Shown: positions 14,630 through 26,307, numbered from the stretch's first letter. The stretch: 64,000 bases of DNA from Candidatus Thorarchaeota archaeon (GCA_019057475.1 DXJO01000006.1:1-64000); one strand, 5' to 3'. Program-made: numbers and translations. Notes: a model not told the origin generated them from the sequence alone.

Positions 14630-15835
14630 ATGTCCAATGAGAAGGTGCTTTTTCTCCTCAATAGGGGCACAGGAGTGTCTCCCTATTCTCATCAGTTCAT
14701 GCCGGAGGAGATAGATCCCCAGATACTCTCAGGATTCATTTCAGCCATCACTAGTTTCATGGACGAAGCATCAGGACCAGAGAAGACACATCTTCAAACA
14801 GTCGACAGCTCAGACGCCTCGTTTCTTCTGGTGGGGGGGGATTGGATAATCGGAGTCTTGTCAGTTTCGAGGGAAACAAACGAGGCCCGCAGTAAGCTCC
14901 GGCGGGTTGTTAGGGAGTTTGAGGAACAGTTCTCGTCGCTCAAGAATGCAGATGGCTTCGAGCTCAGTATGTTCAAGGGCTTCGACAGATTCGTGATGGA
15001 TCTTTTCCTATCTGACAGAATATCGGAACGAACGCTTATTCTCAAGGGCTGGGACTGGCCTAAATTCTGTCGTTCGTTTGACGTTCCCAGTGAGAGTATT
15101 AGAGTAAACAAGCTCCTGAATCAAGCCGAAGACAAGCAATCAGTTATGCAGGTAGCTCAGTCACAAGGGTTGAGCTTAGACGAAGCTATTAGCCTCGTGT
15201 CAATTGCATTTTGGAAGAATGCTCTCTATCTAAACTACGTGCCTTCAGACAATGACATACTTGCTCTCTCAGAAGGCTCATCAACAGTTTTGTTCAGGAA
15301 AGAGAACCCCCTTGAGCTATCGCCCGAAACGGTCAGAATTTTGGGCGCCTTGGATGGTCGCAGACCGCTGTCCATATCTTTAAAAATGCTCGGTGGCCAA
15401 GGTGTGGAAAGAGTCCTTCTGGAACTTGGCAGCCTGATCAATAGAGGATACCTTCAGAATATATCACTTGAAAGAAGATTGGTCCTTGTCAACGAGTGCA
15501 TTCTTTCTCAGCTCTTTCAAATTTGTATTCAGGCTATGGGGGCTGGAAAGGCAACTATGAGCCTCTATGCTGCAATTAAGGCAAGGGTTGAAACAAATCC
15601 ATGGACCAGTAGAATCAGACTTGTAGAGGGCGCCATAGGACACAGTGTAATTGATGTGAGCATGACCCCTGCGGATCTAGATGACCTGTCTGCTGCCTTG
15701 GAGCTTCTAACAAACGATCTCGAAAAAGAGCTGGGCAGAGTGTCTGGAAAAAGTAACGCCAAATCGATGCTACTCTCAGTGAGAAAACATTGTCGCGAGA
15801 GTTGGAGACCCCATATCGGAATTGCATTCTTCTGA
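14630..15835 (+). CDS. Longin-like domain protein with winged-helix repeats
   Basis: N-terminus FLLNRGTGVSPYSHQF...DPQILSGFISAITSFMDE typical of Asgard longin-like domains; later ILGALDGRRPL...LINRGYL; start may be 14585. Confidence 0.7.
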   Translation: MSNEKVLFLLNRGTGVSPYSHQFMPEEIDPQILSGFISAITSFMDEASGPEKTHLQTVDSSDASFLLVGGDWIIGVLSVSRETNEARSKLRRVVREFEEQFSSLKNADGFELSMFKGFDRFVMDLFLSDRISERTLILKGWDWPKFCRSFDVPSESIRVNKLLNQAEDKQSVMQVAQSQGLSLDEAISLVSIAFWKNALYLNYVPSDNDILALSEGSSTVLFRKENPLELSPETVRILGALDGRRPLSISLKMLGGQGVERVLLELGSLINRGYLQNISLERRLVLVNECILSQLFQICIQAMGAGKATMSLYAAIKARVETNPWTSRIRLVEGAIGHSVIDVSMTPADLDDLSAALELLTNDLEKELGRVSGKSNAKSMLLSVRKHCRESWRPHIGIAFF

Positions 15836-15837
15836 AA

Positions 15838-17646
15838 TTAGCTACCTGCCGGTTCCTCTTCACAGGACATAAGCAACATATTCGTTACACTTAACCTGAG
15901 CTCATCCTCCGACACGGAGCCGGTTAGCGTCGTTTTGCAGATGCGGATTGTCGGGAGTGCAGGAAGATCCTCCGCGGATAGCCCAGATTCGGGGTCATCG
16001 ATATTGATTACCTCCATAATGAAATGGTTCAAGCCCATCTCGTCCAGAATCCCAAGGAGCGCATTATGAACTGGGCCGCAGAAGATACAATGATCGGACT
16101 TGTAGAAGGTGATGCATGCGGCTTTTCCGCACGGAGTCAGCATTGACTCGCTCCACGCAGGAAGAGAAATAACGAACCTGCATCCTTGTGACTGATCTCC
16201 TATCACTCTGTCCTCGACCCATACTCGTCCGTCAAGGCTGCTTATTGTTTGATCTACTAGGGTTAGTCCCAGTCCTCGTCCAGCCGCCTGCTTACCTTGA
16301 GCTCCAGTTCGTTTGAAGATAGTTTCTTTCATGCTGTCCGGTATTCCAGGGCCTTTGTCAATAAACTCAATATTGACTGCCCTCCCGAAATCATCGAATC
16401 TAGCATTAACTTCAAGCTCGACCTCCTCATGTGGGTCGTACAGAAGTGCGTTATGGATGATGTTGAAGAAGGCGCTCCAGAGATACATATGACCTAAGAC
16501 CTCGAATGCATCATCCTCGATATTCGAAGTAATCTTCAGCGTCTTCGACGGGACATCTCTGCTGGCCTCTGTCACAGCTCGCCTGAAATGAGGATAAAGG
16601 TCGGTTTTTTCTGGTACGGGAGGTGCGTTCTTTATTGCAATTAGCGCACGCATGTTCGCTATCATTCTGGCGGCTCGTCTAACATTCATGGCTGTTTCAT
16701 TAACGGATGACTGAACGTTTGCAGGCAGCTTTACTAGAGAATTAACAAGATCCAGAGTATAAGTTGTGTTTTGATTGACGCTGTTTAGGTCTTGAGTCAT
16801 TACATCGAGATACAGCTCAGCTCGATCTATCGCGCTACTTTCTCTTGCTTCCGCCGCCTTCCTCCTATCGATGTTTAGTGCCATGAAACCTATTTCAGAG
16901 CGCTTTGCCGCATCAGCTGAGAGCGGGTTGGAAGCAATGTTCACCCACACAAAGTGGCCATCTATATGCTGCATTTGTATTTCCACATCTCTCAGTGCCC
17001 TCCCACGAAGTATCTCTCGTATTGCCTGCTGGCCGGAGCATTTCTCATCCTCAGCGATGAACGCCTTGATGTTCAAACCGACCATGTTCTTAGTTTCGTA
17101 TCCAAGCAGCTTCTCAGCTGCCTCATTGGCATCCTGAATAACTCCCTTTGGACTTAGGGTGAAGATGGCTAATGGTGAGGAGTCGTAAAGCCCCCGGAAC
17201 CGAGTTTCTGATTCCTCGGCTGCTTCCTTGAGAGACAAGCTTTTCGTAACATCTCTGATGATTGCTACAACAGCAGGCGAATCGTGGAGTATGAAGTCAT
17301 TGGTGCTTACATCCACGCTGATTAGTTCACCATCTTTTCGCTGAAGCCGTGTATGGAAGTTATCTCGCCCCTTTTTCTCGCCAATGAATGCTTGCAGCTT
17401 CTCCGGGTGATATCGGTGTTCCAGAGGGTCGATAAGCTCATCAATGAACAGCCCTTCTGCGGTTTCACGTTGATACTTTAGCATTTTTGCGAATGCTTCA
17501 TTCGCGAATACTACCTCCTCATCTTGGATGACTGCTATCCCGTCATTAGCCATCTCCAAGATGCCGCGAAGAAGGTCTTCGCTACGCGAGGTCATATCTT
17601 GATCACCAGACGATGGAGAACTGTCGTGTGGGCGCTTCTTCACCAA
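15838..17646 (-). CDS. PAS-PAS sensor histidine-kinase-like protein with C-terminal thioredoxin-like domain; H-box His replaced by Gln
   Basis: Two PAS domains; N box NIIHNALLY, G1 DKGPGIP, G2 GRGLGL; H box reads LDVMTQDLNS; tail CIFCGP...ALPTI. Confidence 0.88.
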   Translation of the reverse strand: MVKKRPHDSSPSSGDQDMTSRSEDLLRGILEMANDGIAVIQDEEVVFANEAFAKMLKYQRETAEGLFIDELIDPLEHRYHPEKLQAFIGEKKGRDNFHTRLQRKDGELISVDVSTNDFILHDSPAVVAIIRDVTKSLSLKEAAEESETRFRGLYDSSPLAIFTLSPKGVIQDANEAAEKLLGYETKNMVGLNIKAFIAEDEKCSGQQAIREILRGRALRDVEIQMQHIDGHFVWVNIASNPLSADAAKRSEIGFMALNIDRRKAAEARESSAIDRAELYLDVMTQDLNSVNQNTTYTLDLVNSLVKLPANVQSSVNETAMNVRRAARMIANMRALIAIKNAPPVPEKTDLYPHFRRAVTEASRDVPSKTLKITSNIEDDAFEVLGHMYLWSAFFNIIHNALLYDPHEEVELEVNARFDDFGRAVNIEFIDKGPGIPDSMKETIFKRTGAQGKQAAGRGLGLTLVDQTISSLDGRVWVEDRVIGDQSQGCRFVISLPAWSESMLTPCGKAACITFYKSDHCIFCGPVHNALLGILDEMGLNHFIMEVINIDDPESGLSAEDLPALPTIRICKTTLTGSVSEDELRLSVTNMLLMSCEEEPAGS

Positions 17647-17763
17647 CTACGAGTACCTCTTTCAGACTATTGTGCAGCGTGGAGGTTGCTGCCAGCAAGA
17701 AAAAAACTTGCCTATTGAAGCTTCTCAGCATGGGCCTAGAGATGATATGGGCATATTGAGCAT

Positions 17764-18210
17764 CTAAAACAATCTTGGTCGGAAATCCTTCCTCAGATGA
17801 ACCTTTTTGTGATTCTCCTTGAAACCGGAGCTAAGGTATATCTGGATTAGGTCAGCTCGTTTTTCGCTCACAATTGTATCAAGAACTCGGAGCCCCTTCT
17901 CCTCGGCAATCTTTGCTATCTTCTGCAACATTCTTGTACCTAGAATGGTTTCCTCCAATTCATCTTCTATTTCGAAGTGCTGAATGTGTCCAACCAAGCC
18001 AATTGATGGATCTTTCCCCACGTCGAGTTTTAGTGATGCTACGATCAACTCCCCTGCAACTGCAACCACGTACATCGTTTCCTTTGGTGCACCTTGGGTC
18101 AGCAGAACATTCCGAGTCGATAGATCGTGGAACCTGATTCCTTCTCTGGAATAGAACTCCTCGAGTGCGGTTCTATCATGTGCTGTTGCGGGACGTACGT
18201 CAATCTCCAT
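17764..18210 (-). CDS. GNAT-fold protein
   Basis: VRPATAHD N-terminus, ILGTRMLQKIAKIAEEKG, IYLSSGF. Confidence 0.7.
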   Translation of the reverse strand: MEIDVRPATAHDRTALEEFYSREGIRFHDLSTRNVLLTQGAPKETMYVVAVAGELIVASLKLDVGKDPSIGLVGHIQHFEIEDELEETILGTRMLQKIAKIAEEKGLRVLDTIVSEKRADLIQIYLSSGFKENHKKVHLRKDFRPRLF

Positions 18211-18493
18211 ATCAGCGGGCTCCTAATGATACTAATGAGATACAATCGTGTTTATAGAAGTACTGTTGTATTGCACAAACCGCTGGGGTCTTCGCAATAG
18301 CCCAAGATGCAGATTTGAATTAGTTTTCCACACTGTAGATTGAGAATCATCTAATCTAAGATGTTCACATGGAGTTCCTGGATGAAAAGAATACCCCGAA
18401 CCCCGATTTCCTTTTCCCCTTATTTTGATTATCTCATTTCTTCTTCTAGTGTTTGCGCCGGCACTGATGCTCTTGCCGCCAGGTTAGCGAAGC

Positions 18494-19249
18494 CTATTTC
18501 TCGATTATATTGTAGATGTCAGTGATGCGCTTCGTAAACTCATTGTCTGGATGCTTCAGTGTCACAACATACCTACTGCCAACCTCGATTAGGAGGGGCA
18601 ATAGAGGTATGATTGTGGCGACCTTTGTCTTGAACTTCCTCTCAACCTCTTTGATAATGGCCTTGTCTTCATAGATGCCTGGTTTCTTGTTTATCACGAT
18701 ATGGATGTCAGGAACCTGCAATTTCCGGGCGACGCTGAGAGTAGCGGCGGTTCCGAGCAAGTCCTGTTCGTCAATCCGTGCTACAACAAAGAGATAATCT
18801 GCTGTTGCCATTGAGAGAAGCGTTTCCCGGTCAAGGCCAGGGTGAGTGTCGATTATTAGGTAATCAAGATCCTTGACTTTGATTACGTCAGAAAAACCTC
18901 TTCTGAGGTCGCTCACTTCATAGCCTTCCCTAAGAATCCGCGTGATGTCGGTTGCTGTCATAGAGCTTGGGATTAGGAATAGTTTGCCCCTCTTGATTCC
19001 AAGTCGTTGTGTCATGTCGATGCATGTGGCGCCGATGTCACACTCGCCTCTCAAGTAAGCATTGAGAGTATGCTTCATCTTCTCTCTGCCCATACCGAAG
19101 ATCACATGTATGCCGGGCGAGGCTAAATCTGTGTCCATGACTGCAACTCTCTTGCCATCAAGAGCCATTATTGCGGCCAAGTTGGCGGCGATATTGGACT
19201 TCCCTGTTCCTCCACGAAAACTATGCATGCTAATGATTTCTCTTGGCAC
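18494..19249 (-). CDS. MinD/ParA-family ATPase
   Basis: Deviant Walker A SFRGGTGKS, VAVMDTD, Walker B LIIDTHPG, VINK. Confidence 0.92.
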   Translation of the reverse strand: MPREIISMHSFRGGTGKSNIAANLAAIMALDGKRVAVMDTDLASPGIHVIFGMGREKMKHTLNAYLRGECDIGATCIDMTQRLGIKRGKLFLIPSSMTATDITRILREGYEVSDLRRGFSDVIKVKDLDYLIIDTHPGLDRETLLSMATADYLFVVARIDEQDLLGTAATLSVARKLQVPDIHIVINKKPGIYEDKAIIKEVERKFKTKVATIIPLLPLLIEVGSRYVVTLKHPDNEFTKRITDIYNIIEK

Positions 19250-19255
19250 TTTATC

Positions 19256-20548
19256 TCACCTGACATGACTTATGATTCGTTCTTTCTCCCACGTGACGTG
19301 GCTGCCCAGCTCTCGCAGAACCTCGAGTATTCTCGTAGCAGGGATTTGAGACCTCTCCGAAATTTCTTGAAGCGACAGGCTTCCGGTGCAGAATTTCCAG
19401 ATTGAATCAACAACGTCAAAGTCCCTTTTCTTAATTCCTATAACCTCGAGATAGGCAGAAAAGCGATCATCCCTCTCATCCATGACTGGGAATATTTTCG
19501 TTATGCGGACCAATCCCTTCGCAATCAGCTGAGCTAGTATCTCATAGATCTGTTCCCGTTCCAAGCCGCTGCTCTCTTGGATGTCTGCTATTGTCCTATT
19601 TTTACTTAGAGAGTTGACAATATTATGGCCGCCTTCACGCATCTTGTCTGGCATATTTGCAAATACAATTACTGAGTCGCGTTTGACTTCATCAAGCGGA
19701 AGCACAGGAACCACTGCATCGTATTCATAGAACGCAATCGGTCTCTCCATTCGCTCAGGGTCAAATCTCTTGATATCAAAAAAGCTAGTCATTTGCAAAC
19801 GTGTCACAAAGGGGCTTACAAGTTCTGCATACGTCTTCTCCGAGAGTCCTAGTGCAACAACAAACGCACAGATCCCCTTGTTTCTCACTCTGATAAGCAT
19901 GAATGAATTGGACGGGTCAAGACATGAGTGCTCTACCATCTTGATTGTTTCTGATGATTCGGAACTAGCGAAAGGCGGTGTGAGATCGAGCACAGCTTCA
20001 AGCTCGTACGCTCTCAAGTTGGAAACCACAACGTAGCCATCCCAAGTGACCATGCCCCCTCGCAGAATATCCCTGTTCAATTCAATCTCCGATAGAGTCG
20101 CTTTCAGATTTCTAATGTCATCTGCCGGTAGCAACGCCGTTCTATACCGTCGTGCTAAACCGGGAACTCCATCGAATTTCTGAAGAGTTGCTTCGACTAC
20201 GTCCGCAAAGGGCTTGAACACCCTTGAGTTCGGGAGCTCCTTCAGGAGCTCGCTGTAGAATATACTAACGAACTGCTCCGCAATGTCTTTCAGGATTACC
20301 CGGTGTATCTCGCCACTGTCTTCCTCAGCCACAAGAGCAATGAAGTACAGGTCGCCCTTTCGCTCCCACACCAGTTTGTTCGAGGAGAATGACATTACTC
20401 TAATTTGGTCCTGCCCGACTTCTTCGGCGAAAGAACTCACCGCTGACAGGAAGGCAGCTACAAGATCGTCAAGTTTCTTCGTTCCCATGACGCTGTAGTG
20501 GAAGATTAGAATGCCACCTTCACGTAGAACGATTATCTCCTTGACCAA
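19256..20548 (-). CDS. Longin + roadblock-like + tandem winged-helix protein
   Basis: MVKEIIVLREGGILIFHYS...LVAAFLSAVSSFAEE (longin); ILRGGMVTWDGYVVVSNL (roadblock-like); two C-terminal wHTH-like repeats. Confidence 0.75.
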   Translation of the reverse strand: MVKEIIVLREGGILIFHYSVMGTKKLDDLVAAFLSAVSSFAEEVGQDQIRVMSFSSNKLVWERKGDLYFIALVAEEDSGEIHRVILKDIAEQFVSIFYSELLKELPNSRVFKPFADVVEATLQKFDGVPGLARRYRTALLPADDIRNLKATLSEIELNRDILRGGMVTWDGYVVVSNLRAYELEAVLDLTPPFASSESSETIKMVEHSCLDPSNSFMLIRVRNKGICAFVVALGLSEKTYAELVSPFVTRLQMTSFFDIKRFDPERMERPIAFYEYDAVVPVLPLDEVKRDSVIVFANMPDKMREGGHNIVNSLSKNRTIADIQESSGLEREQIYEILAQLIAKGLVRITKIFPVMDERDDRFSAYLEVIGIKKRDFDVVDSIWKFCTGSLSLQEISERSQIPATRILEVLRELGSHVTWEKERIISHVR

Positions 20549-20655
20549 GGCAATGGCCTCCGGTGCTGTGAACCTGTGCCAGTTGGCTCATACTCACTTA
20601 TAGATTTGTGCAGACGAGCGGCTCGTATGAATCAACTGAGATTTGGAAGTGTTTC

Positions 20656-21567
20656 TTAATCAGCTATAGGTGTATCTGCCAAACCGCTGACCTCTATGTA
20701 ACTCCAGTCGACTTCCGTTCCTAGCTTCGCGAGAACCTCGTAGAGGCGGTCGGCAGTCACTCCTAACCGTTCGCTCACATCCACGACAGATCTTTCGCCA
20801 TTACATAGATGTTTTGCTCTTTCCAGCAGTTGGTATTCCTTGCTTGGCAGTCCTACCAAGTCAAGGAACGCATTGAACCTAGCATCCCCGCTTTCAATGA
20901 CCGGGCACATCTTGGCGATTTTTAAAACTCCTCTGATGGTTAAGTACTCTATCACTTCTGAGATAGCATTTTCCTCAATATTCAGTTTGTTCGTAATACT
21001 ATGGATAGAGATGTTGCCATCAATTGCCGTGAGAATCCGGGCGCCCAAGCTCCCAAAGTCTCGGTGTAGCTCATCAAGAAAGCCTCCTGTCCTTATTGCA
21101 ACGTCTAGAGCTTCCTTTCGAACAGTTGGGATAACATAAGCACTAAGATTAGAGATGATTATCAGCACACTTTCGTAGTACTGGAAAACACCTTGGACCT
21201 CGGTACTAAAGTCTTCGAAAACATCCAGGATTGGTATTTCCATCCTCAGTTCAGTTTCATACCTCGCCATGAACTTGCGGCTCAACTCCCTCAAGACTGC
21301 CCTTAACACCTTCTTTGAAGCATGATTGTCAACCAAGAAGATGAAGAGGAACTCTGGATTGAATTGCTCGTATAACAATTCTGAACCTTCGAACGTCAAG
21401 CTTCTGATGGATCTCTCACCGAATTCTGTGGCAAAGCTCGTGATAGCGCTGAGAAAGCCTGACAAGAGAGAGTCCATCTTGCGAACATTAGTTCTCGAGA
21501 AATGAAAGATTGGTAATCCTCCTGCAGTAATTACCATAAACTCTTGGACTCCGAGCTTGCCAACCAA
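20656..21567 (-). CDS. Longin + tandem winged-helix protein, paralogue of 19256..20548
   Basis: FMVITAGGLPIFHFS...LLSGFLSAITSFATE; ILTAIDGNISIHSI...LTIRGVL; C-terminus aligns by eye with the neighbour. Confidence 0.75.
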   Translation of the reverse strand: MVGKLGVQEFMVITAGGLPIFHFSRTNVRKMDSLLSGFLSAITSFATEFGERSIRSLTFEGSELLYEQFNPEFLFIFLVDNHASKKVLRAVLRELSRKFMARYETELRMEIPILDVFEDFSTEVQGVFQYYESVLIIISNLSAYVIPTVRKEALDVAIRTGGFLDELHRDFGSLGARILTAIDGNISIHSITNKLNIEENAISEVIEYLTIRGVLKIAKMCPVIESGDARFNAFLDLVGLPSKEYQLLERAKHLCNGERSVVDVSERLGVTADRLYEVLAKLGTEVDWSYIEVSGLADTPIAD

Positions 21568-21727
21568 CTAGCATCTCTCCTTGCTTCTCGACCCGAGGTA
21601 TCTTGTCTTTAAGGTATTGCTTTTCTCAGCCGCACGAATTGCTACCTTCGTCAACGCATGTGATGTCCGAAAGGTCCATATTGTCTTGCATGCGGAGCCA
21701 CATAACGCCCCGGGAAAGGTGACATAT

Positions 21728-23329
21728 ATGCTCGAGTACAGGGAGTTTCCAGTGAGAGCCGCTCTAACATACATACTATTCTCTCCCAGTGTTGCTTTTG
21801 CAATGTTAGTAATTGTTAAGGTGATAGAGGGTTCACTGCTACCATTGACGCTGCTGGAACACCACGGGCTGCTTGGTCTTGGAGCTTTGGCAGCAACTTT
21901 CTCGCTACTAGTGGCTGGCTTTATTGTTGACAGGCTTCAAAGAAAGTATATCCTGATGTTTCTAAGCGCCTTGGCCCCCGGTATCGTTGGCTTGCAGGGT
22001 TCGATGATTGGATTCCCGAATGAGTACTCCCCCCAAATAGAAACTGCACTTGTGATTTCTTCGTTTGCGTGTCTCGCATTTCTAATGGTGAGCTGGACAG
22101 TCCAACTGAACCGGACAGTAGTCGTGAAGTTTCGCGGAAAGGTTAATGCTGCATTTCTTGCTTTCGCGCTTGTGGTCTTTCTTGTCTACTATCTTCTATC
22201 TGCTATGGGAGTTGTTCTCATGGGGAGTATCCTGTTGTTTCCTGCAGTGATTTCATTTGTTGCCATGATAGCCGCCGTGACATTGCGGCCCTGGAAGCTC
22301 GACCAGATTCCGTTGGCTGTGCAGGGCTCGGTAATGAAGTACTTCCGTCCAATGGCCTTAGTCTTGGCAGCACATATGCTATGGTTCTTCGTTGCGAAGC
22401 TCAGGTTTCAAGCGGAAGGACTGGGAACTCTGAGCCAGTCGGTAGGTTTCGGGATTTTCGAGGTAGGCATTCTTGTCGTTGGTGTTGTTGGGGCCGGACT
22501 TCTTGCAGACTTCCAAGGACGAAAAAGCGCCTTCAGTACATTGATCCTGCTAATGAGTTTGCTGACGATTTTCGGATCTGCGATGTATGAATTCCTCTTT
22601 GCTGATTCCGGTTCACTGTGGGGTGCAGGCCTACTAGTATTCGAACGGTTCATAGAGGGCTATATGCTAGGTCTTTGTTTGCTATTCATCTGGTCAGAAC
22701 TCGGTCCTGCGAAGACCAAGGGTCTTAGGCTCTCCCTCGTTTGGCTTTTCTTTCTAGGCTATATGTCTCTCTTCTGGGCAGTGAATCTTGAGGCTACAGT
22801 GTTTGGATTCACATTCCTTGTCCCCGAGGAACTCACCATATTTGGAGGTAACATAGCAGTATTTCTCTCTCTTATCGCCCTATATATGATTGGGCCTCTG
22901 CCGCAGATACTGGGCCGAGAAATCGAGATGGAGGAATTGGACTTGGACTTTGATGACCGGCAGGTCAAACGGACTGTGGATGCTTTTGTTGGTAGAGATG
23001 ATTTCGCTTCTATTCGGTCGCAGCTCGATGTGTTAGATGCAGGAGCTGAGCTGAATGAGGTTAGTGACAAGGATATGAGCGATATACTTGGAGATGATTT
23101 CGCTAAGATGCTGCCGCTTAAGCGAGTGCCAGGAGTTGGTCCAAATCTTTCGAAGAAGCTTCGACGTGCTGGGTACAAATCTGCAGCCCAGCTATCCGGA
23201 GAAACTCCAAAACGACTTGCAGAGAAAATTGACGGTCTTGGCTTAGCTCGGGCTGAGAAGATAATCAGCGATGCCCAAAAGATTGTGAAAAGAACTGTGA
23301 AGCCGACGCACAAGCGGAATAAAATCTGA
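21728..23329 (+). CDS. MFS-like polytopic membrane protein fused to a C-terminal helix-hairpin-helix domain
   Basis: About 12 TM with GFIVDRLQRK and GLLADFQGRK (MFS motif A-like); acidic linker; LKRVPGVGPNLSKKLRRAGY...IDGLGLARAEKII; ATG 21728 preferred over the track start 21581. Confidence 0.8.
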   Translation: MLEYREFPVRAALTYILFSPSVAFAMLVIVKVIEGSLLPLTLLEHHGLLGLGALAATFSLLVAGFIVDRLQRKYILMFLSALAPGIVGLQGSMIGFPNEYSPQIETALVISSFACLAFLMVSWTVQLNRTVVVKFRGKVNAAFLAFALVVFLVYYLLSAMGVVLMGSILLFPAVISFVAMIAAVTLRPWKLDQIPLAVQGSVMKYFRPMALVLAAHMLWFFVAKLRFQAEGLGTLSQSVGFGIFEVGILVVGVVGAGLLADFQGRKSAFSTLILLMSLLTIFGSAMYEFLFADSGSLWGAGLLVFERFIEGYMLGLCLLFIWSELGPAKTKGLRLSLVWLFFLGYMSLFWAVNLEATVFGFTFLVPEELTIFGGNIAVFLSLIALYMIGPLPQILGREIEMEELDLDFDDRQVKRTVDAFVGRDDFASIRSQLDVLDAGAELNEVSDKDMSDILGDDFAKMLPLKRVPGVGPNLSKKLRRAGYKSAAQLSGETPKRLAEKIDGLGLARAEKIISDAQKIVKRTVKPTHKRNKI

Positions 23330-23398
23330 ATCGTGTGCAATTACGCCATTCCGGTTTGTAGAGTAATCCATTGAAATGTCCTGATGTTTCTTAAGACC

Positions 23399-24322
23399 CT
23401 ATTCAGACCGGTGTCCAGAATAGTACGCAAGACCCGTGCCACCTAAAATATCAATGCCTTTCAGATGCTTCCCGCACACATTACAAGACAATGATATCTT
23501 TGGCTCGTCGGATGCGGCTCCACATTTGTTGCATAGGGGTTCAACATCCATAACTGCTAGCTCATCAACCTTGATGGGCGTTTTACAATGTTGACACAAT
23601 ACCTCTAACAAGTCATCAGCGATTACCGTGTGGAATTGCGCCCTACAATGAGGGCAATACGCTGTATAGACCTTATGAAGGTCATCCGAATCGCACTTCG
23701 GGCAGAGGAGATTCACATTGATCTCGGAGCTTCCACATTGAGTGCATTCGACTCTTCTGCCGAATGTCTTTGGAACAATAACGCCCTCGTTATCTAAATC
23801 CTTCAGCTTGCGAGTCACTTCTTCAACATCTTGACCTAAGTAATCTGCGGCCTCAGGATACCTGATGATTCCCCTCATGACATGCTTTGGTTTGATTGAA
23901 GTCAATCTACCGTCAATCATATCTTTTACCATTCTCTGAATCCCTGAATCAGAAAGCAGCTCTTTGCCACGCGTTTCCTGGAGGAGTTCCTTAAGCCGCT
24001 CATAAGCATGTTTTATCTCGTTGTCCCATTCCTCTGCATTGAAGTTAATCTCGCTCACTAAACGCTCTAGATTCCGCTCGACAACGAGCGGGTCATCATC
24101 GTCATCAAGGAGGACAGCAATACAGTTTGGTGGTTCCAAGTAAGAAACAACAAGGCCTCTCTTCATTTTGGTGTAGCCGAGCTGAGCTTCCTGGTTCACT
24201 CCATGTCCCATAAAGATGACTAACGCTTCTTCGCCCTTCAGCTCCTCTTCTTCGGGATATACCCTGCCCACCATTGGTCCAAGAGTGTCGTCCCACCAAA
24301 TTGAAAAGATTGCTTTGGGCAT
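23399..24322 (-). CDS. Longin/uDENN-like domain fused to TackOD1-like wHTH plus multi-zinc-ribbon domain
   Basis: Start MPKAIFSIWWDDTLGP after AAAGGAG RBS; six CxxC pairs (CTQC, CPKC, CPHC, CQHC, CNKC, CNVC) after a wHTH-like segment. Confidence 0.72.
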   Translation of the reverse strand: MPKAIFSIWWDDTLGPMVGRVYPEEEELKGEEALVIFMGHGVNQEAQLGYTKMKRGLVVSYLEPPNCIAVLLDDDDDPLVVERNLERLVSEINFNAEEWDNEIKHAYERLKELLQETRGKELLSDSGIQRMVKDMIDGRLTSIKPKHVMRGIIRYPEAADYLGQDVEEVTRKLKDLDNEGVIVPKTFGRRVECTQCGSSEINVNLLCPKCDSDDLHKVYTAYCPHCRAQFHTVIADDLLEVLCQHCKTPIKVDELAVMDVEPLCNKCGAASDEPKISLSCNVCGKHLKGIDILGGTGLAYYSGHRSE

Positions 24323-24519: not shown

Positions 24520-26307
24520 ATGGTTTCACGACGTAAGCGTCATTTGTTTGTTGCATCGATCTTCGCATGGCTAATGCTCTCTGTGTTTGCAGTTGGAGTT
24601 ATGACACCTGCATTATCTGAAACCGCTCAAGACAACAGATTCTTACTTGCAGCTCCAACCATTACTAGTCCATCTGATATGGAGTTCGAGAATGGCACAC
24701 AAGGCGAGTGGGTCACTTGGAACGCAACTGATGCTGAGCCAAAGAATTACACAGTGACTCGCAATAGTGATGTTTATAGTTCAGGCTCCTGGGACGGAAC
24801 CGAGATCAACGTCGACCTGAACCACTTGTCATCCGATGAGCTAGCCCAAACTCTTCCCGTTACTTTCATCTTTGGATGCACAGTCTTCAATATGCAGAAC
24901 GAGTCCGTGTACGACGAAGTTCAGGTTAGGCTGATTGCTGACGAGTCCTCTCCCATAATCGAGGCTGTTATGTGGGGTAACGAAACTTTGGTGTTTAACT
25001 CAACATCAGGCGCCTACGAGGCATCCTACGAAGAAGGCAGTTTTGATCACGAAATAACTTGGAATATTACCGAATCCAATCCTGACACTTTCAACGTCAC
25101 TCGACTATCAAACTACCCCACAAACAACCACACAGTGATAGAGGCGGGGGACTGGGATGGCAACAACATAACACTCAACGTGGATGGATTGAATTCAACT
25201 CACTGGTACTTGTTCACTCTCTTCTTGAACGACACTCTAGGGTATAACGTAACAAGTTTGGTCAACGTAACGATCTATGAAGACATCACTGCCCCCATCA
25301 TTGATTCACCAGACGATATTTCCTACGAGTTTGGGGCGGACCCTTACTACATCAAATGGAATGTATACGACTCCAATCCTACTAACTACACCGTCATCGT
25401 GACTATCCTCTACAACGACACTTCGTATGGTAATCCTCTTGCGGCCCATGGCCCTGCAAACATAACCCAAAATGAATGGGCCCTTACTGATCCAAAAGGT
25501 GACGATATCGAATTCCCGGTGCATGACCTCCACCTTGGAAACTACACCTACACAATGACATTGTTCGATGTATTTGGAAAAAATGCGACAGATTCTGTCA
25601 ACGTCACAGTGTACAGGGATGTGAGGGCTCCTGTCATCAATGCGACCGGGGATTTAACCTACGAAGAAGGCTATGCAGGCAACTACCTGAACTGGTCTGC
25701 GGAAGAGAACAGCCCCAGGCTGTACAACCTGACTCGTGATGGCGAAGTCATCATGAATGGTACATGGAGCGGTCAGAACCTCAGTCTTGTCATTGACGGG
25801 ATGGATGTAGGTTTCTTTGTTTACAATATGTCGTTCACCGATTACTTCAATCAGACCTCCTATGTAATCATCACAGTGCAAGTGACCCATGACATTCATC
25901 TGCCTGCTGTCGCGGCGATTAGAGTAATACAGTCCTACTCCTCGGAGACTTGGAACAACGTCGAAATTCAAGCATTCATCTGGGATTTGAATGGCATCCT
26001 CAACATAACACTGGAATGGGGAACAGACCCTAGCAATCCTGCGCACTCCTCGATGGATTCTTTGGGTGAGAACCTCTTCATTGCATCTCTTGGTGAATAC
26101 CCTCACGGTTTCGTTGTGTGGTATAGACTCACTGTCCAGGACAACTCCTCGGTACAGAATATCAAGAGCTCGGGATGGTCTTACTTCGAAGTGGAGTCGC
26201 TAGAGTCTGAGGAAACGCCCGCACTATTATGGGTGGGTTTCTTGATACTAGGGTCTCTCGCCACCATTGTCCTTTTCGTTATATACTTCAGAACGAAGAC
26301 AAAGTAA
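24520..26307 (+). CDS. Membrane-anchored cell-surface glycoprotein with Ig-like repeats
   Basis: Signal peptide; four repeats of about 90-110 aa (P-x-I...Y/FE-x-G...W...P-x-x-Y/F); many N-x-S/T sequons; C-terminal TM plus RTKTK. Confidence 0.85.
   Translation: MVSRRKRHLFVASIFAWLMLSVFAVGVMTPALSETAQDNRFLLAAPTITSPSDMEFENGTQGEWVTWNATDAEPKNYTVTRNSDVYSSGSWDGTEINVDLNHLSSDELAQTLPVTFIFGCTVFNMQNESVYDEVQVRLIADESSPIIEAVMWGNETLVFNSTSGAYEASYEEGSFDHEITWNITESNPDTFNVTRLSNYPTNNHTVIEAGDWDGNNITLNVDGLNSTHWYLFTLFLNDTLGYNVTSLVNVTIYEDITAPIIDSPDDISYEFGADPYYIKWNVYDSNPTNYTVIVTILYNDTSYGNPLAAHGPANITQNEWALTDPKGDDIEFPVHDLHLGNYTYTMTLFDVFGKNATDSVNVTVYRDVRAPVINATGDLTYEEGYAGNYLNWSAEENSPRLYNLTRDGEVIMNGTWSGQNLSLVIDGMDVGFFVYNMSFTDYFNQTSYVIITVQVTHDIHLPAVAAIRVIQSYSSETWNNVEIQAFIWDLNGILNITLEWGTDPSNPAHSSMDSLGENLFIASLGEYPHGFVVWYRLTVQDNSSVQNIKSSGWSYFEVESLESEETPALLWVGFLILGSLATIVLFVIYFRTKTK

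Follow-up and report, generated by a model that had tools for sequence, protein, structure and literature searches.

A MinD/ParA-type ATPase gene adjoins a longin-roadblock-winged-helix gene within a layered, longin-rich neighbourhood of Thorarchaeaceae

Asgard genomes encode dozens of longin- and roadblock-domain eukaryotic signature proteins (ESPs), few of which have known partners. Surveys have reported that the majority of these genes are not found in conserved neighbourhoods (10.1101/2020.10.19.343400) and that longin/roadblock proteins are rarely paired with their GTPases by genome layout (PMC10933270). What, then, holds together the eight genes (g1-g8) found at positions 14630-24322 of DXJO01000006.1:1-64000, from the Candidatus Thorarchaeota metagenome-assembled genome (MAG) GCA_019057475.1, four of which encode longin proteins? 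The window analysed is the first 64,000 nt of contig C29 of this genome (G000, 3.34 Mb). An earlier note on this DNA had described the cluster of four longin proteins, and all eight genes are indeed in place, with the details given for g1, g2, g3 and g7 qualified below; it had also joined the eight into a single signalling module. We find that the neighbourhood is built in layers and is not one such module. Its conserved unit is g7, encoding a membrane protein, together with g5(-g6)-g4, encoding a longin-roadblock-winged-helix protein (g5), in places its paralogue (g6), and a MinD/ParA-family ATPase (g4). Around this unit, g6, g8 and the GNAT-like g3 are family-level additions, and g1 and g2 are genus-level additions.

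The layers emerge from gene order in relatives. About 50 Thorarchaeaceae species share the collinear order g11-g10-g9-g8-g7-g6-g5-g4-g3-AOR-gm1, so that g3 to g8, rather than being scattered in related genomes, keep their places in these species. This collinear block also holds unrelated genes, among them AOR (aldehyde:ferredoxin oxidoreductase), a THEP1-type NTPase gene and a gene for an FrhB-like protein. Because these are equally syntenic, family-level synteny proves little about function, including that of g3 and g8, and g8 orthologues are in addition restricted to this one family. Neither g1 nor g2 belongs to the conserved set, as both are confined to the genus of the window.

More telling is a second family, f12, whose MAGs carry the labels Hermod-, Hod-, Thor- or Promethearchaeota. 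Here a divergent g7-like gene (24-30% identity), a g5-like gene (28-33%) and g4 (50-54%) occur together in nine of nine loci examined, including that of G029, and the flanks are wholly different (URO-D, TFB and a DNA methylase). In a third family, f2, g5 and g4 are adjacent on a 9.5-kb contig of G019. The coupling of the two genes is tight: in 51 of 52 loci, g4 starts no more than 11 nt after the g5 stop codon or the two genes overlap, by 44 nt at most. Orthologues of g4 were found in four of the 28 families sampled (f1, f2, f12 and f28), and two Thorarchaeaceae genomes that are close to complete (92% and 97%) gave no orthologue-level match to g4, g5, g7 or g8. The persistence of the triad amid different flanks, the g5-g4 coupling and this joint absence all speak against the view that there is no functional unit here, only a tandem duplication of g5/g6 combined with inherited synteny and chance insertions. 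That view draws on the equal synteny of unrelated flanking genes across the family and on the paralogy of g5 and g6, and we regard it as highly improbable.

The ATPase gene g4 (18494-19249, minus strand) had been called MinD-like, and its family matches bear this out, with AAA_31 (60 bits), ParA (57.2 bits) and CbiA (50.2 bits) all above their cut-offs. Its best solved relative is the archaeal MinD-1 (1hyq), and FleN is among its other solved relatives. The P-loop GK[ST] and the Walker A' and B aspartates are present, with VAVMDTD and LIIDTHPG conserved, while the signature lysine of KGGxGK[ST] is not: the Walker A motif reads HSFRGGTGKS, with an arginine (R13) where the deviant Walker A lysine sits, aligned with GKGGTGKT in 1hyq. 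This RGGTGKS arginine-for-lysine exchange is invariant in 14 aligned orthologues and present in 118 of the 120 best database homologues. Across the family, g4 is much more conserved than g5 (76-85% against 38-65% identity). An iron-sulphur carrier of the Mrp/NBP35 type is unlikely, as the g4 alignment contains no conserved cysteine pair. PADLOC returned matches at the level of the P-loop and the helix-turn-helix (HTH) alone, so the locus is not a known defence system.

The protein encoded directly upstream, g5 (19256-20548, minus strand), combines folds that are familiar from regulators of GTPases. In its AlphaFold2 (AF2) model, built on 22 orthologues (pLDDT 80), residues 1-126 form a longin domain that VIA comparison superposes on Sec22b (Z 14.7, root-mean-square deviation (rmsd) 2.6, 120 residues aligned) and SRX (Z 14.0). 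Residues 138-258 form a roadblock domain with the α-β-β-α-β-β-α order of the Roadblock/LC7/MglB fold, matching MglB (1j3w; Z 12.5, rmsd 2.7, 117 residues aligned) and Asgard roadblocks (Z 11.8-12.4); Pfam Robl_LC7 gives a weak match, and in one f12 orthologue only. A conserved linker at residues 124-135, KFDGIPGLARRY, lies between the two domains, and the C-terminus carries two TrmB-like winged helices (Pfam TrmB, E 1e-11). The top Foldseek matches of g5 are Fuzzy, Mon1/Ccz1, Inturned, HPS1/4 and NPRL2/3 (E 3e-8 to 1e-5), and its longin and roadblock domains together align with Fuzzy at Z 13.9 over 219 residues; in its fold, g5 therefore matches platforms that regulate GTPases. The neighbouring g6 (20656-21567, minus strand) is a Thorarchaeaceae-specific paralogue, aligned to g5 by BLAST over residues 7-134 (34%) and 164-288 (30%), which retains the longin domain and the two winged helices and lacks the roadblock. 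It is missing at the f2 and f12 loci. The description of g5 and g6 as two longin-winged-helix proteins thus holds, from the AF2 model for g5 and from hidden Markov models (HMMs) and Pfam.

We accepted a longin fold where the β-β-α-β-β-β-α-α topology was accompanied by a structural match to solved longin domains. By this measure, g5 (1-126) and g8 (1-117) are longins, with DSSP element order in agreement, and g6 and g1 are longins by HMM homology to g5, their N-terminal domains matching the g5-type longin in an iterated HMM (E 1e-32). The Pfam family Fuz_longin_1 (PF19036) stays under its gathering cut-off of 26.1 bits for g5 (22.8-25.6) and g6 (21.8-23.9), and several orthologues have a precomputed PF19036 match; no informative match came from searches of PDB sequences with profiles of g5 or g8. 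Compared by hhalign, the g5-type and g8-type longins were not similar and are therefore two separate families.

Is the local density of longins unusual for this genome? Iterated HMMs run against all six-frame open reading frames (ORFs) of the 3.34 Mb found 15 g5-type and 3 g8-type longins. Apart from the four in the stretch, all lie outside the window, in agreement with the earlier note. In a simulation, 4 of 18 longins inside 10 kb had p ~3e-4 and would thus rarely arise by chance; the local density is far above the genome background, and the g5/g6 tandem duplication accounts for part of this excess. Elsewhere in the genome, members of the same longin families adjoin Arf/Rag-like GTPases or form fusions with them; for these families, then, a partner NTPase is the norm. 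At C31:18278-20306, a gene for a g8-type longin with a winged helix (395 aa) overlaps the start of a g5-type longin fused to an Arf-like GTPase (19425-20306), likely a regulator-GTPase pair. At C29:231460-233528, a gene for a 176-aa small GTPase comes after that of a 435-aa longin protein, which matches HTH_NPRL3 weakly, and at C45:30010-32653 the third g8-type longin protein (379 aa) adjoins a protein of 600 aa that includes an Arf-family GTPase domain. The genome has another small cluster of longin and roadblock genes at C12:9392-12386, where two neighbouring g5-type longin genes (275 and 290 aa) stand beside a Roadblock/LC7 gene.

Divergent from g6 and on the plus strand, g7 (21728-23329, start set from orthologue alignments) encodes a polytopic membrane protein with a C-terminal helix-hairpin-helix (HhH). 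Of the earlier description as a membrane-HhH protein, the HhH is clear (HHH_5, 39.8 bits); that the membrane part is MFS-like is a lead only, from Atlas neighbours that are MFS_1 clusters at 0.93. Between the two genes lies a divergent control region (21568-21727), which we compared across the upstream regions of 44 non-redundant species. Two promoter-like elements are conserved throughout the family: CGATAYCTTAAAGAC, which lies some 40 nt before g6 and has a GGAG Shine-Dalgarno sequence after it, and CGAAANRTCCATAT, which has a single occurrence in the genome and lies some 50 nt ahead of the ATG of g7. We read these as putative back-to-back promoters of the BRE/TATA type (TFB-recognition element and TATA box). 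A 14-nt element here, ATATGGAYNTTTCG / ATATGGACCTTTCG (21668-21681), occurs once in the 3.3-Mb genome and is nearly invariant at this place in about 40 species. We considered it as an operator or as the start of a small ORF and rejected both, as the frame is not kept between species and the position fits the g7 BRE/TATA promoter; such strict conservation is unusual in a promoter.

The same region bears on whether g5 and g6 are simply transcription factors. They could be TrmB-like regulators of g7 and of their own operon, with g4 as an ATP-dependent anti-activator in the manner of FleN on FleQ, and with no positioning or tethering involved. The TrmB HTH match, the divergent layout of regulator and target around a conserved control region and the presence of FleN among the solved relatives of g4 all favour such a scheme, and the action of MinD-like FleN on FleQ provides a precedent (PMC8528422, PMC10723142). 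We nevertheless think it unlikely: the region 21568-21727 contains no inverted repeat, palindrome or repeated operator, its conserved elements resemble BRE/TATA promoters, and the scheme leaves both the HhH of g7 and the longin-roadblock platform of g5 unexplained.

We tentatively prefer, at somewhat less than an even chance, a mechanism in which a longin/roadblock dimer regulates the ATPase switch of g4 and ties that switch both to DNA and to g7 in the membrane. The (HhH)2 tail of g7 would be cytoplasmic; g7 is divergent from a putative operon g6-g5-g4, in which g4 directly follows g5 and usually overlaps it at the stop and start codons. Dimerisation of g5 through its longin and roadblock domains is proposed by analogy with NPRL2-NPRL3, Mon1-Ccz1 and Fuzzy-Inturned; the partner would be g6 in this genome and a second copy of g5 where g6 is missing. 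We infer a physical contact, in which the dimeric platform would bind the ATP-bound g4 dimer and set its rate of hydrolysis. Longin/roadblock platforms act in this way on small GTPases, as do MinE or ParB on MinD or ParA. Its links to DNA would come from the winged helices and from the HhH tail, and its link to the membrane from g7; under the control of ATP, the module may tether or position DNA with respect to the membrane protein, or it may gate DNA binding. In this scheme, g8 (in the family), g1 and g2 (in the genus) and a PAS-kinase/kinase/receiver cassette in another genus would be later add-ons, suggesting that the module became wired to sensing of the two-component type.

Several points weigh against this mechanism. 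We found no paper on a longin or roadblock protein paired with a MinD/ParA ATPase, and, to our knowledge, SIMIBI ATPases of the MinD/ParA kind have no established partner with a roadblock or longin domain. The winged helices of NPRL2/3 mediate protein contacts, so DNA binding by g5 is not assured, and the orthologue alignment of the g5 longin domain (1-126) has no invariant arginine. One Thorarchaeota contig (CAYWJO010000061.1; L071:10630-17685) has g5 with no g4, g3 or AOR downstream, although 7 kb of contig remain. In the f28 genome G242, a g4 homologue (49% identity, same Walker A) stands beside a TPR protein, and its neighbourhood includes no detectable g5-like gene; an ORF of 137 aa found there does not resemble g5. 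Finally, in the complete genome G238 (3.2 Mb), g4 lies at 1.55 Mb and Orc1/Cdc6 at 16 and 55 kb. No centromere-like repeats or palindromes were seen. The missing g4 of the Thorarchaeota contig may reflect rearrangement or misassembly, and the nearest named relatives of the G242 homologue are Helarchaeota MAGs.

The distance from the origin and the lack of centromere-like repeats weaken, in particular, the idea of a partition system. A ParABS/SegAB-like assignment of the g4-g5 locus was rejected on these grounds and because the partner of g4 is a longin/roadblock/winged-helix protein, not one of the ParB/SegB type. Compared with ParA/MinD systems more broadly (MinDE, ParABS, SegAB and FleN-FleQ), the locus is similar in that g4 is encoded right after a putatively DNA-binding partner and next to a gene for a likely cargo or target. 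It differs in that the g5 platform has no ParB, ribbon-helix-helix or MinE fold, the signature lysine of g4 is an arginine, the locus is not origin-proximal, and no MinD-type membrane-targeting helix is evident in g4.

Other known systems resemble g5. Its best Foldseek matches (E 3e-8 to 1e-6) are the tri-longin RabGEF (Rab guanine-nucleotide exchange factor) subunits Fuzzy-Inturned, Mon1-Ccz1 and HPS1-HPS4, with which the longin and roadblock-like tandem aligns over about 220 residues and to which its top Pfam longin match, Fuz_longin_1, also points. Unlike these, at 10-16% identity, g5 has two winged helices in place of the third domain and no adjacent Rab-like gene. Like the NPRL2-NPRL3 pair of GATOR1 and the NPRL2-like Asgard proteins noted by Liu et al., g5 has an N-terminal longin, further domains and C-terminal winged helices, the Foldseek match being full-length, and g5 and g6 are paralogues encoded side by side, which suggests a heterodimer. 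Unlike in GATOR1, the middle domain of g5 is a roadblock, the adjacent gene encodes a MinD/ParA-type ATPase and no Rag-like GTPase, and there is no DEPDC5.

These likenesses raise the possibility of nutrient sensing of the GATOR1/Rag kind with no DNA involved, whereby a g5/g6 dimer would act on g4, in the place of the Rag GTPases, at a g7 'transceptor', and the winged helices and HhH would make protein contacts. The Foldseek alignments of g5 with NPRL2/NPRL3 and Npr2/Npr3 (470-500 columns, E 1e-6 to 4e-5), the presence of an NPRL2-like family in most Thor MAGs (Liu et al., 10.1101/2020.10.19.343400) and the MFS-like Atlas lead for g7 are in line with it. The TM-scores are low (0.2), however, and the relationship of g5 to GATOR1 is one of Foldseek similarity, as it has no Pfam NPR2 or NPR3 match at E 0.1; moreover, g5 showed no identifiable counterpart of the catalytic arginine finger with which the GATOR1 longin acts on a Rag GTPase, the ATPase g4 belongs to a different P-loop class, and TrmB and HHH_5 domains are typically DNA-binding. 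We consider this interpretation improbable.

The fourth longin protein, g8 (23399-24322, minus strand), comes from the other longin family and is an NPRL2/FLCN-like longin fused to TackOD1, a winged helix with zinc ribbons. The earlier description as longin-TackOD1 stands: the AF2 model (pLDDT 81) and Foldseek place a longin domain at residues 1-117, with NPRL2 (Z 10.2, rmsd 2.9, 116 residues aligned) and FLCN (Z 9.8) as best matches, statistically tied with sigma-adaptins, and TackOD1 (PF18551) scores 56.6 bits against a gathering cut-off of 32, the sole copy in the genome. In the GTPase-activating (GAP) longins C9orf72, SMCR8, FLCN and NPRL2 and in Asgard look-alikes, a GP motif opens β2, and a WD pair precedes it by four residues (PMC12290439). 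For g8, an alignment of 10 orthologues shows W10-D11, G15-P16 and G19-R20 to be invariant, and in the model β2 begins at residue 15. This places the GP motif in the β1-β2 turn, at the β2 start, with the WD-GP spacing of C9orf72 (W33-D34, G38-P39). R20 and R83 are both invariant in the orthologue alignment and are candidates for an arginine finger. Unlike the GAP longins, g8 is fused to TackOD1 and not to DENN or winged-helix modules, and no small GTPase is adjacent; two g8 paralogues in the genome lack the GP motif yet stand beside GTPases. Orthologues of g8 are confined to family f1, the Thorarchaeaceae (50 of 59 genomes sampled); other families have homologues at 20-23% identity only, which in G019 lie on a contig other than that of g5-g4. 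Beyond g8, g9 (24520-26307, 595 aa) has no Pfam match and carries internal repeats common to many very large proteins of the genome (900-2600 aa); its gene shows synteny throughout the family, and the product is probably a surface protein or a repeat protein.

The remaining genes are the outermost additions. The 401-aa longin protein g1 (14630-15835 from the ATG, plus strand; ORF open from 14585) aligns with the g5 profile in hhalign over residues 30-123. The longin part of its earlier description as longin-winged-helix is thus upheld, and the winged helix is not confirmed, since Pfam gives no match and an Atlas lead alone points to it. It was found at same-genus loci only, and its closest paralogue (C29:242035-243327, 45% identity) adjoins a HATPase_c gene. 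Pfam and NCBIfam assign to g2 (15838-17646, minus strand) two PAS domains and a HATPase_c domain, and a C-terminal CxxC domain follows. It had been described as a PAS kinase without its histidine joined to a thioredoxin; the first part is correct, with glutamine at the phospho-acceptor position of the H-box in place of the histidine found in eight of eight paralogues, and this glutamine is kept in five species of the genus. The thioredoxin fold is not confirmed by Pfam, and the C-terminal CIFC domain is common to the closest paralogue (49% identity), which retains the histidine. In other genera g2 is absent at the locus, g1 and g2 having been inserted between AOR and g3. The small GNAT-like g3 (17764-18210, minus strand) does have the expected Acetyltransf_10 match, though below the cut-off (E 7e-4); it adjoins g4 in most Thorarchaeaceae loci and does not do so in family f12.

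Taken as one signalling module, all eight genes would carry a PAS/redox input through longin scaffolds to ATPase and DNA-binding outputs. In favour of this are the shared strand of g6-g5-g4-g3-g2, the two-component output domain TackOD1 on g8, and a cassette in another Thorarchaeaceae genus (L019:10932-14127 and L083:5508-8840), where g6 and g5 are separated by a kinase with two PAS domains, another kinase and a stand-alone receiver. Against it, g1 and g2 are missing here in all other genera, g2 lacks the phospho-acceptor histidine and g8 is restricted to one family. The eight genes also do not form a single operon, as had been recognised. We therefore hold this unity to be very unlikely, while the tie to PAS and two-component proteins survives: g2, the paralogue of g1, the cassette and TackOD1 are recurrent but lineage-specific links to two-component signalling. 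They agree with the observation that two-component domains are frequent fusion partners of NPRL2-like longins (Liu et al., 10.1101/2020.10.19.343400).

The protein families at this locus are known Asgard ESPs. What the locus adds is a fixed partner gene: g5 abuts or overlaps g4, the two are adjacent in three Asgard families, and the partner is a MinD/ParA ATPase and not a small GTPase, which makes them a concrete pair for biochemistry. A bolder idea, which we think rather improbable, is that the NTPase regulated by an NPRL2/3- and Fuzzy/Mon1-like platform is not a small GTPase but a SIMIBI MinD/ParA ATPase dimer, at a membrane protein resembling a transporter. Such an arrangement would be a counterpart in Asgard archaea, or a forerunner, of the transceptor-Ragulator/GATOR-Rag logic, one that uses another NTPase and is connected to two-component sensors. 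If the pairing of g5 with g4 holds, longin/roadblock platforms would regulate a wider range of NTPases than has been thought, and Thorarchaeia would possess a candidate membrane-DNA organising or regulatory system.

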